From NCBI RefSeq assembly GCF_003018115.1, contig NZ_CP027457.1: a stretch of 64,000 bases of DNA; one strand, 5' to 3'. Origin of the DNA: Escherichia coli. Lineage in GTDB: Bacteria; Pseudomonadota; Gammaproteobacteria; Enterobacterales; Enterobacteriaceae. Every line of letters starts with the position of its first letter. The first letter of the stretch is position 1. The position numbers are program-made. Shown here in pieces: positions 1-1,586 of the stretch.

Positions 1-1586
1 ACCGATCACACCCAGCGGGCTGTTGTCTTCTTCATAGCGGTATTTCAGGTTGAAACCGCCCATTTTGTTCATTTGGCCCTGAGCGTCGCTCTGTGCGTAA
101 CCGCCAGTTACGGTAGAAGTCGCAGCTACGGAAGTACCTGCGGTGAAAGCCAGAACTGCGGCCAGTGCTGAAAGACATGCAATTTTTTTCATAACCACCT
201 CAAATGTGATTCAAATAAGTCCTAAGTTTTAAATATATCAAAAATTAATGGGAAACTCTTCGCGATTTGTGATGTCTAACGGGCCATTTCATGTAACAGA
301 ACGTTTCCATACACCGCTATCCATCTAAATTTAAATCACTTTTTCAGAGAACTGCGTAAGTATTACGCATGTTCTCCCTGTCATTCATCCAGATTATTCC
401 TAATCACCAGACTAATGATTCCATCAATCCTGGCGCATTTTAGTCAAAACGGGGGAAAATTTTTTCAACAAATGCTCAACCAGCATTGGGTATATCCAGT
501 ACACTCCACGCTTTACTTAAGTCTAGATATTTGTGGGAGAAAGGATGCCTGGTTCATTACGTAAAATGCCGGTCTGGTTACCAATAGTCATATTGCTCGT
601 TGCCATGGCGTCTATTCAGGGTGGAGCTTCGTTAGCTAAGTCACTTTTTCCTCTGGTGGGCGCACCGGGTGTCACTGCGCTGCGTCTGGCATTAGGAACG
701 CTGATCCTCATCGCGTTCTTTAAGCCATGGCGACTGCGCTTTGCCAAAGAGCAACGGTTACCGCTGTTGTTTTACGGCGTTTCGCTGGGTGGGATGAATT
801 ATCTTTTTTATCTCTCTATTCAGACGGTACCGCTGGGTATTGCGGTGGCGCTGGAGTTCACCGGACCACTGGCGGTGGCGCTGTTCTCTTCTCGTCGCCC
901 GGTAGATTTCGTCTGGGTTGTGCTGGCGGTTCTTGGTCTGTGGTTCCTGCTACCTCTGGGGCAAGACGTTTCCCATGTCGATTTAACCGGCTGTGCGCTG
1001 GCACTGGGGGCCGGGGCTTGTTGGGCTATTTACATTTTAAGTGGGCAACGCGCAGGAGCGGAACATGGCCCTGCGACGGTGGCAATTGGTTCGTTGATTG
1101 CAGCGTTAATTTTCGTGCCAATTGGAGCGCTTCAGGCTGGTGAAGCACTCTGGCACTGGTCGGTTATTCCATTGGGTCTGGCGGTCGCTATTCTCTCGAC
1201 CGCTCTGCCTTATTCGCTGGAAATGATTGCCCTCACCCGTTTGCCAACACGGACATTTGGTACGCTGATGAGCATGGAACCGGCGCTGGCTGCCGTTTCC
1301 GGGATGATTTTCCTCGGAGAAACACTGACACCCATACAGCTGCTGGCGCTCGGCGCTATCATCGCCGCTTCAATGGGTTCTACGCTGACAGTACGTAAAG
1401 AGAGCAAAATAAAAGAATTAGACATTAATTAAATTTACATTTCTGCATGGTTATGCATAACCATGCAGAATTTCTCGCTACTTTTCCTCTACACCGTCTT
1501 TATATATCGAATTATGCAAAAGCATATTTATTCCGAAAATTCCTGGCGAGCAAATAAATAAGAATTGTTCTTATCAATATATCTAA

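Follow-up and report, generated by a model that had tools for sequence, protein, structure and literature searches.

In Escherichia coli, Dar and Sorek (2018, PMC6061677) found that Rho-dependent transcripts have steady-state 3' ends that directly follow stable stem-loops without U-rich tails. Downstream of these stem-loops C is enriched over G, and the stems guard the RNA against PNPase and RNase II. The sequence just past the rhtA gene resembles this class in having a stable stem-loop directly after the gene, with low U content and then more C than G. It differs from the class in that the E. coli rhtA copy keeps a short U run, which places it as an intermediate toward an intrinsic terminator, and in that a role for Rho and for trimming is here a proposal. 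Intrinsic terminators are the second point of reference. The rhtA hairpin shares with them a typical size and energy, a location near the stop codon and a UUU that follows, whereas its U-tract is short and interrupted, the base of its stem is A-U rich and most of the orthologous hairpins have no U-tract.

The repeat that encodes this hairpin is already in print as a contact of the nucleoid protein Dps. In Antipov et al. 2017 (PMC5553809), one of the DNase I footprints that Dps gives in vitro within the regulatory region of dps is centred on this repeat, and the inverted repeats described there and in Melekhov et al. 2015 (PMC4433220) include this same 30-bp repeat by name. Those papers treat the repeat as a DNA element, whereas the comparative pattern reported here points to RNA. 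The published protein contacts of the repeat are limited to these low-specificity Dps contacts in vitro (PMC5553809, PMC4433220). Furthermore, the sequence is like the operators of dimeric factors in its perfect two-fold symmetry in Escherichia, but it differs from them in that its spacing and half-sites are not conserved, the genome holds no second site and no specific factor is known. Our search of the literature for the rhtA terminator, intergenic region or UTR returned nothing on this element.

A perfect palindrome downstream of rhtA

The window is the whole 64-kb stretch of E. coli DNA that was analyzed. The features discussed here are listed by their positions in the window, with the source of each assignment in brackets.

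1-190, minus strand: start of ompX (ORF list, first 4 kb)
545-1432, plus strand: rhtA coding sequence, a threonine/homoserine exporter of 295 aa, with stop codon TAA at 1430-1432 (ORF list; RefSeq annotation)
1433-1440, plus strand: spacer of 8 nt, ATTTACAT, from stop codon to stem (sequence)
1441-1453, plus strand: 5' arm of the stem, UUCUGCAUGGUUA (RNA fold; columns 18-29 of the aligned helix, with compensatory changes)
1454-1457, plus strand: loop UGCA, palindromic in Escherichia only (RNA fold)
1458-1470, plus strand: 3' arm of the stem, UAACCAUGCAGAA (RNA fold; compensatory changes in the alignment)
1471-1478, plus strand: short imperfect U-tract, UUUCUCGC, 4 U of 8 (sequence)
1471-1590, plus strand: C-rich, G-poor tract, a candidate Rho-utilisation region (composition across 60 loci)
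1731-2234, plus strand: dps coding sequence, the next gene 3' of rhtA, with its own promoter (ORF and annotation)
2638-3384, plus strand: glnH (ORF list)

Positions 1441-1470, TTCTGCATGGTTATGCATAACCATGCAGAA, form an exact palindrome of two 15-nt arms that are 100% complementary, with 0 nt of spacer between them. Its start lies 8 nt past the rhtA TAA, and 260 bp separate its end from the dps ATG (1731), in agreement with the initial annotation, which had reported an exact 30-bp palindrome just 3' of the rhtA stop and about 260 bp from dps. It is the longest perfect inverted repeat of the window; among 100 sequences randomised by a first-order Markov model, perfect arms typically peaked at 9 to 10 nt and in no case reached 15. 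The palindrome occurs a single time in the window even when 3 mismatches are allowed (0 expected), and BLAST finds the 30-mer at one site per E. coli genome, the two places returned being one for each strand of the palindrome. A REP/BIME-like repeated element was considered and rejected on the basis of this single copy per genome and in the window. The next-longest perfect inverted repeats of the window lie far from this locus. One of them, CAAAACATAAAACTGATAGTTTTATGTTTTG (48090-48120, 14-nt arms, 3-nt loop), falls in an AT-rich stretch inside the minus-strand ORF 47692-48756, and the other, CTAAAATGACATCCATGTCATTTTAG (48766-48791, 12-nt arms, 2-nt loop), lies between the start of that ORF and the stop of the ORF upstream of it, 48851-50923, also on the minus strand.

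Folded as RNA, the palindrome gives a 13-bp stem closed by a UGCA loop (-18.7 kcal/mol, z = -5.8), and its reverse strand folds into the same stem. The DNA fold reaches -13 kcal/mol per strand (z = -5.9). A scan of positions 1-4000 with the Rfam 15 covariance models at E <= 1 returned no match at 1441-1470. As a separate observation, TTATGCAAAAGCAT at 1512-1525 is 86% complementary to the part of the palindrome at 1447-1460 and is a small inverted repeat itself (ATGC AAAA GCAT); CAAAAGCATATTTATTC is retained in E. coli and E. albertii and is absent from more distant Escherichia species.

The arrangement of the locus is nearly universal in the species, as 5413 of the 5426 complete E. coli genomes carry the rhtA-dps locus, always annotated as rhtA followed by dps. 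A RefSeq E. coli chromosome matches the region 1380-1740 at 100% identity, and the rhtA of MG1655 (b0813) matches the rhtA of the window at 100% by tblastn. In MG1655 coordinates, rhtA lies at 849210-850097 and dps at 848408-848911, both on the minus strand, and the palindrome corresponds to about 849172-849201. For the dps promoter, we take the TATACT at 1679-1684 to be the -10 element, after the assignment of Altuvia 1994. Conservation within the rhtA-dps spacer changes at a sharp boundary: across Escherichia species, the promoter and leader of dps, roughly 90 bp up to its ATG (within 1590-1730), are nearly invariant, in contrast to the 120 bp 3' of the palindrome, which are highly diverged.

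Within Escherichia, a 24-nt core, TGCATGGTTATGCATAACCATGCA, is invariant, and the sequence just 3' of it is strongly diverged between species. The outermost pairs vary: in E. albertii a C-G pair is changed to U-A, with compensation, and differences at the outermost positions shorten the palindrome to 26 to 28 bp in some E. coli strains. It is important to consider that BLAST identity figures conceal these terminal differences. Among the E. coli loci examined, three (L082, L083 and L085) carry T in place of A at position 1470 (GCAGAT), by which the outer pair is lost and the U run becomes UUUUCU; in one strain the 5' arm additionally contains TTACTG.

A conserved hairpin anchored to the rhtA stop codon

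Relatives of the locus were gathered using Dps as a probe, with one genome per species, yielding 80 loci. The gene directly upstream of dps was rhtA in about 75 of them, which cover Escherichia, Salmonella, Citrobacter, Enterobacter, Klebsiella, Raoultella, Kosakonia, Buttiauxella, Cedecea and others. Two short, low-coverage contigs also came up with the Dps probe, one of 703 nt from Marinobacter sp. BW6 (L006) and one of 573 nt from Streptomyces polyasparticus (L076), whose Dps proteins are 97% and 92% identical to E. coli Dps, respectively; they are probably enterobacterial contamination of those assemblies.

A stable hairpin is present in nearly all loci that have rhtA upstream of dps, with its stem starting 5 to 15 nt past the rhtA stop. 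For 63 Enterobacteriaceae loci, the first 60 nt past the stop had a mean fold energy of -20.2 kcal/mol, compared with -4.0, -4.3 and -7.2 kcal/mol for the next three 60-nt windows, and against dinucleotide shuffles the median z was -4.9, with z < -3 in 90% of these loci. Covariation was assessed on 60 distinct rhtA-dps spacer sequences, aligned with MAFFT and folded with RNAalifold. The resulting helix has 12 pairs, 11 of which show compensatory changes on both sides. Its cells are paired in 96.7% of cases, compared with 78.7% when partners are shuffled, and sliding the partner by 1 to 3 columns lowers the paired cells to 30-46%. Cells in which both sides have changed number 137, where 36.6 are expected, and none of 500 shuffles reaches the observed values. 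The helix thus shows the covariation expected of a conserved structured RNA. Conservation across the Enterobacteriaceae had been proposed in the initial annotation as a check on the palindrome, and it is borne out at the level of structure, the hairpin being kept with a covarying stem in the 60 distinct spacers.

The sequence of the stem is far less constant than its place. The stem UUCUGCAUGG...CCAUGCAGAA is common to Escherichia, Citrobacter and Enterobacter, while other genera carry UAUUUACCGUGGU...ACCACGGUAAAUA (Buttiauxella), CAUUUAAUGCGGU...ACCGCAUUAAAUG (Cedecea), UAUUCAGCAUGAGA at the same place (Kosakonia) or GUUCUGCACGAGGC...GCCUCGUGCAGAAC (Raoultella). Further complementary stems among the relatives are CCCUGCAUGGC...GCCAUGCAGGG and AUUCAGCAUGG...CCAUGCUGAAU, and Klebsiella has shorter rhtA-dps spacers with hairpins unrelated in sequence. 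A strong hairpin is absent from the spacers of Pseudocitrobacter (L014, L016) and Trabulsiella (L046, L069), which measure 118 to 133 nt, and the element is therefore dispensable in some lineages. With spacers this short, the dps promoter of these two genera must abut or overlap the 3' end of rhtA. Function thus seems to want a hairpin at that place and not this particular sequence, and the hairpin can be lost.

The loops outside Escherichia also differ from that of E. coli, as they have 3 to 9 nt and are not palindromic; consequently, the perfect palindrome without a loop is an accident at the level of the genus. The amalonaticus-type Citrobacter sequence GGTT-TGCATAACC differs from the Escherichia sequence GGTTATGCATAACC by a single A, and this one extra A in Escherichia makes the loop self-complementary. 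The lack of a built-in loop had been taken at first as making a dimeric binding site as plausible as a hairpin, an argument that fails in view of the loops of the relatives and the one-nucleotide distance from Citrobacter.

Evidence for selection on RNA

In the aligned helix, read on the rhtA-sense strand, G.U or U.G pairs fill 33 cells and A.C or C.A pairs fill 4, counts that come from related, non-independent sequences. A strand-neutral helix search, in which G.T and A.C were scored equally, gave 17 versus 5 over 53 distinct hairpins, which we estimate to represent roughly 11 versus 3 independent lineages. Since a duplex-reading protein or a cruciform would treat G.T and A.C alike, the G.U bias fits RNA. 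The folding energy of the whole segment did not separate the plus strand from the minus strand (p = 0.24), and the strand assignment consequently rests on the wobble counts. Judged from these counts, selection likely acts on the RNA of the rhtA-sense strand. Covariation, variable loops, the G.U bias and the anchoring to the rhtA stop together point to selection at the RNA level; symmetric changes of both arms could in principle also occur in an operator that co-evolves with its dimeric protein.

Tail, downstream composition and transcript 3' ends

A scan for the terminator pattern, with a threshold of at least 5 T of 8, did not flag the hairpin site because the tail holds 4 U of 8. The 8 nt that follow the helix contain between 0 and 5 U in the 60 relatives, and only 3 of these reach 5; the count is at most 4 in 57 and at most 2 in 29. 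Since the hairpin is conserved while the U-tract is mostly absent from the relatives, the selected feature is the stem-loop and not a unit of stem plus U-tract. The locus thus has the sense-strand stem-loop past the stop codon that intrinsic terminators have but not their U-rich tract of about 5 or more U in 8. Accordingly, of the "terminator" label given to the hairpin at the outset, the part concerning the stem-loop stands and the part concerning the U-tract does not, the latter being poor in E. coli and missing from most relatives. The first 120 nt past the helix average 23% C and 11% G over the 60 loci, with more C than G in 56 of them. Both traits of the class of Dar and Sorek are therefore found, namely a stem-loop with reduced U (E. 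coli being intermediate, with 4 U of 8) and an excess of C over G downstream.

The rhtA gene is weakly expressed, which may explain its absence from thresholded lists of 3' ends and would make that absence uninformative. The Term-seq tables of Adams et al. 2021, which include this region, give minus-strand ends at 848340, 848673 and 848852, which belong to dps, and none near 849165-849172, and their bicyclomycin table has no entry for the rhtA hairpin site. An rhtA entry is likewise absent from the TERMITe and TerminatorNet supplements. The strong end at MG1655 848340 (Adams 2021) corresponds to about position 2302 of the window, at the dps terminator. The only Rfam hits in 1-4000, all of them sub-threshold, at 2272-2307 (and 2217-2306), to ctRNA_p42d (26.9 bits, gathering score 50, E = 0.0074) and STnc70 (20.1 bits, E = 0.68), fall on the canonical dps terminator hairpin, GGCTTCCTGACAGGAGGCC plus GTTTTGTTTTG, and most likely reflect generic terminator shape.

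Discussion

We consider it probable that the DNA of the palindrome serves as the template of a stem-loop that would form the 3' end of the rhtA mRNA. We regard it as an ordinary element of a known kind, and it is already in print as a Dps contact. What was computed here is the hairpin, its conserved position relative to the stop codon, the covariation, the strand bias of the wobble pairs, the weak U-tract and the skew of C over G. From these features we infer the transcript end at the hairpin, the shares of intrinsic and Rho-dependent termination and the protective role. Given its U-poor tail and the C-rich, G-poor composition of the next 120 nt, the hairpin has the look of a weak intrinsic terminator, of a stem-loop that protects the 3' end of a Rho-terminated transcript, or of both. 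In the mechanism we propose, the nascent RNA would fold into the 13-bp hairpin, 8 nt past the stop codon, as RNA polymerase leaves rhtA. The short U run of E. coli (UUUCU; UUUUCU in some strains) would then probably cause intrinsic termination of a fraction of the polymerases, and Rho would probably halt the remainder by acting on the C-rich, G-poor RNA that comes next. Exonucleases working from 3' to 5' would trim the transcript back to the hairpin and be blocked there. The net effect would be a defined and protected rhtA 3' end, together with a shielding of the dps promoter, which is regulated separately, against transcription reading through from upstream.

This mixed mode is distinct from a canonical Rho-independent terminator acting alone, in which hairpin and U-tract would release nearly all polymerases. 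We hold that version to be quite unlikely. The stable 13-bp stem with a tetraloop, the UUU directly after it, the UUUUCU of some E. coli strains and the typical site right past a stop codon all agree with it; however, the tail of the window has 4 U of 8, the base of the stem is A-U rich, the pattern scan was silent, and the relatives have kept the hairpin with U counts at or below 4 in 57 of 60 and at or below 2 in 29. An operator for a sequence-specific homodimeric factor, with half-sites TTCTGCATGG and CCATGCAGAA, regulating dps or, from the 3' side, rhtA, is the reading to which we give the least credence, and we regard it as very improbable. Perfect symmetry upstream of a heavily regulated promoter invites it, as does the outer arm TTCTGCATGG that Escherichia, Citrobacter, Enterobacter and Lelliottia have in common. 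On the contrary, the distance between the arms changes with loop length, so that the half-sites would shift in helical phase, and the arms are swapped for unrelated complementary sequences in Buttiauxella, Cedecea, Kosakonia, Raoultella and Klebsiella. A bias of G.U over A.C of 33 to 4 is not one that a duplex-reading protein would impose. Moreover, with one site per E. coli genome there are no second copies of the kind a regulon would have, and the site, about 220 bp from the dps transcription start, lies farther upstream than the known OxyR, IHF and Fis sites. To our knowledge, the motifs of CRP, FNR, Fur, LexA, NsrR, MntR, TyrR and PurR do not resemble the half-site. A dimeric operator of fixed geometry is rejected, given an arm gap of 3 to 9 nt or more, the replacement of the arms in several genera and the G.U bias. 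The initial annotation had left a hairpin and a dimeric protein site open as equals; the hairpin is favored by the compensatory stem, its place 5 to 15 nt past the stop and the wobble bias, and the dimeric site is disfavored by the variable spacing, the arm replacement and the lack of a second copy.

Dps binds DNA with low specificity. In a further reading, the repeat, as a duplex or extruded cruciform, would be a preferred contact for a nucleoid protein, be it Dps or another one, some 250 bp upstream of the dps promoter, and would contribute through local topology to a positive feedback of Dps on that promoter. Relative to the -10 at 1679-1684 and a transcription start near 1691, the footprint of Antipov et al. 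covers 1410-1475 of the window, with the palindrome inside. In support of a DNA element, a dps-null strain shows 1.5-fold lower expression of a Pdps-gfp reporter and inverted repeats are over-represented in the regions bound by Dps (Antipov, PMC5553809), and the work of Melekhov et al. 2015 (PMC4433220), the source of the footprint, shows an affinity of Dps for branched DNA. The perfect repeat of Escherichia, with its AT-rich centre and a DNA fold of -13 kcal/mol per strand, would suit such binding. However, the footprints are weak, require a 5- to 10-fold excess of protein and comprise few protected bands (Melekhov, PMC4433220), and the reporter effect was ascribed by the Antipov authors mainly to competition with Fis at a proximal site; the footprint work does not establish control of dps by the repeat. 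The comparative data also weigh against this reading, since the perfect loop-less repeat is restricted to Escherichia, the 3- to 9-nt loops and one-strand G.T bias of the relatives suit RNA and would be of no help to cruciform extrusion, and the position of the hairpin follows the rhtA stop codon and not the dps promoter. We therefore find a preferred nucleoid-protein contact with feedback on dps unlikely. A DNA-level role of the repeat is possible but weakly supported, and it does not account for the comparative pattern. Both kinds of function could also be combined, with an RNA hairpin at the rhtA 3' end whose loss of the loop in Escherichia allowed a cruciform to dock Dps and feed back positively on dps. 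We judge this dual use decidedly improbable; if true, it would be a case of a terminator co-opted as a DNA architectural site.

Returning to the stem-loop proposed to end the rhtA mRNA, its reach beyond annotation is small: rhtA would gain a defined 3' boundary, and the hairpin would explain how dps is its own transcription unit despite a co-directional upstream gene. The locus also illustrates cleanly that comparative sequence alone can tell a perfect palindrome from a protein operator, through variable loops, compensatory changes and the G.U bias, and it advises caution in taking a published Dps footprint over the repeat as proof of a dedicated DNA site. If a U-less protective stem-loop indeed closes rhtA family-wide, this hairpin would offer a well-behaved model of how Rho-dependent 3' ends form.
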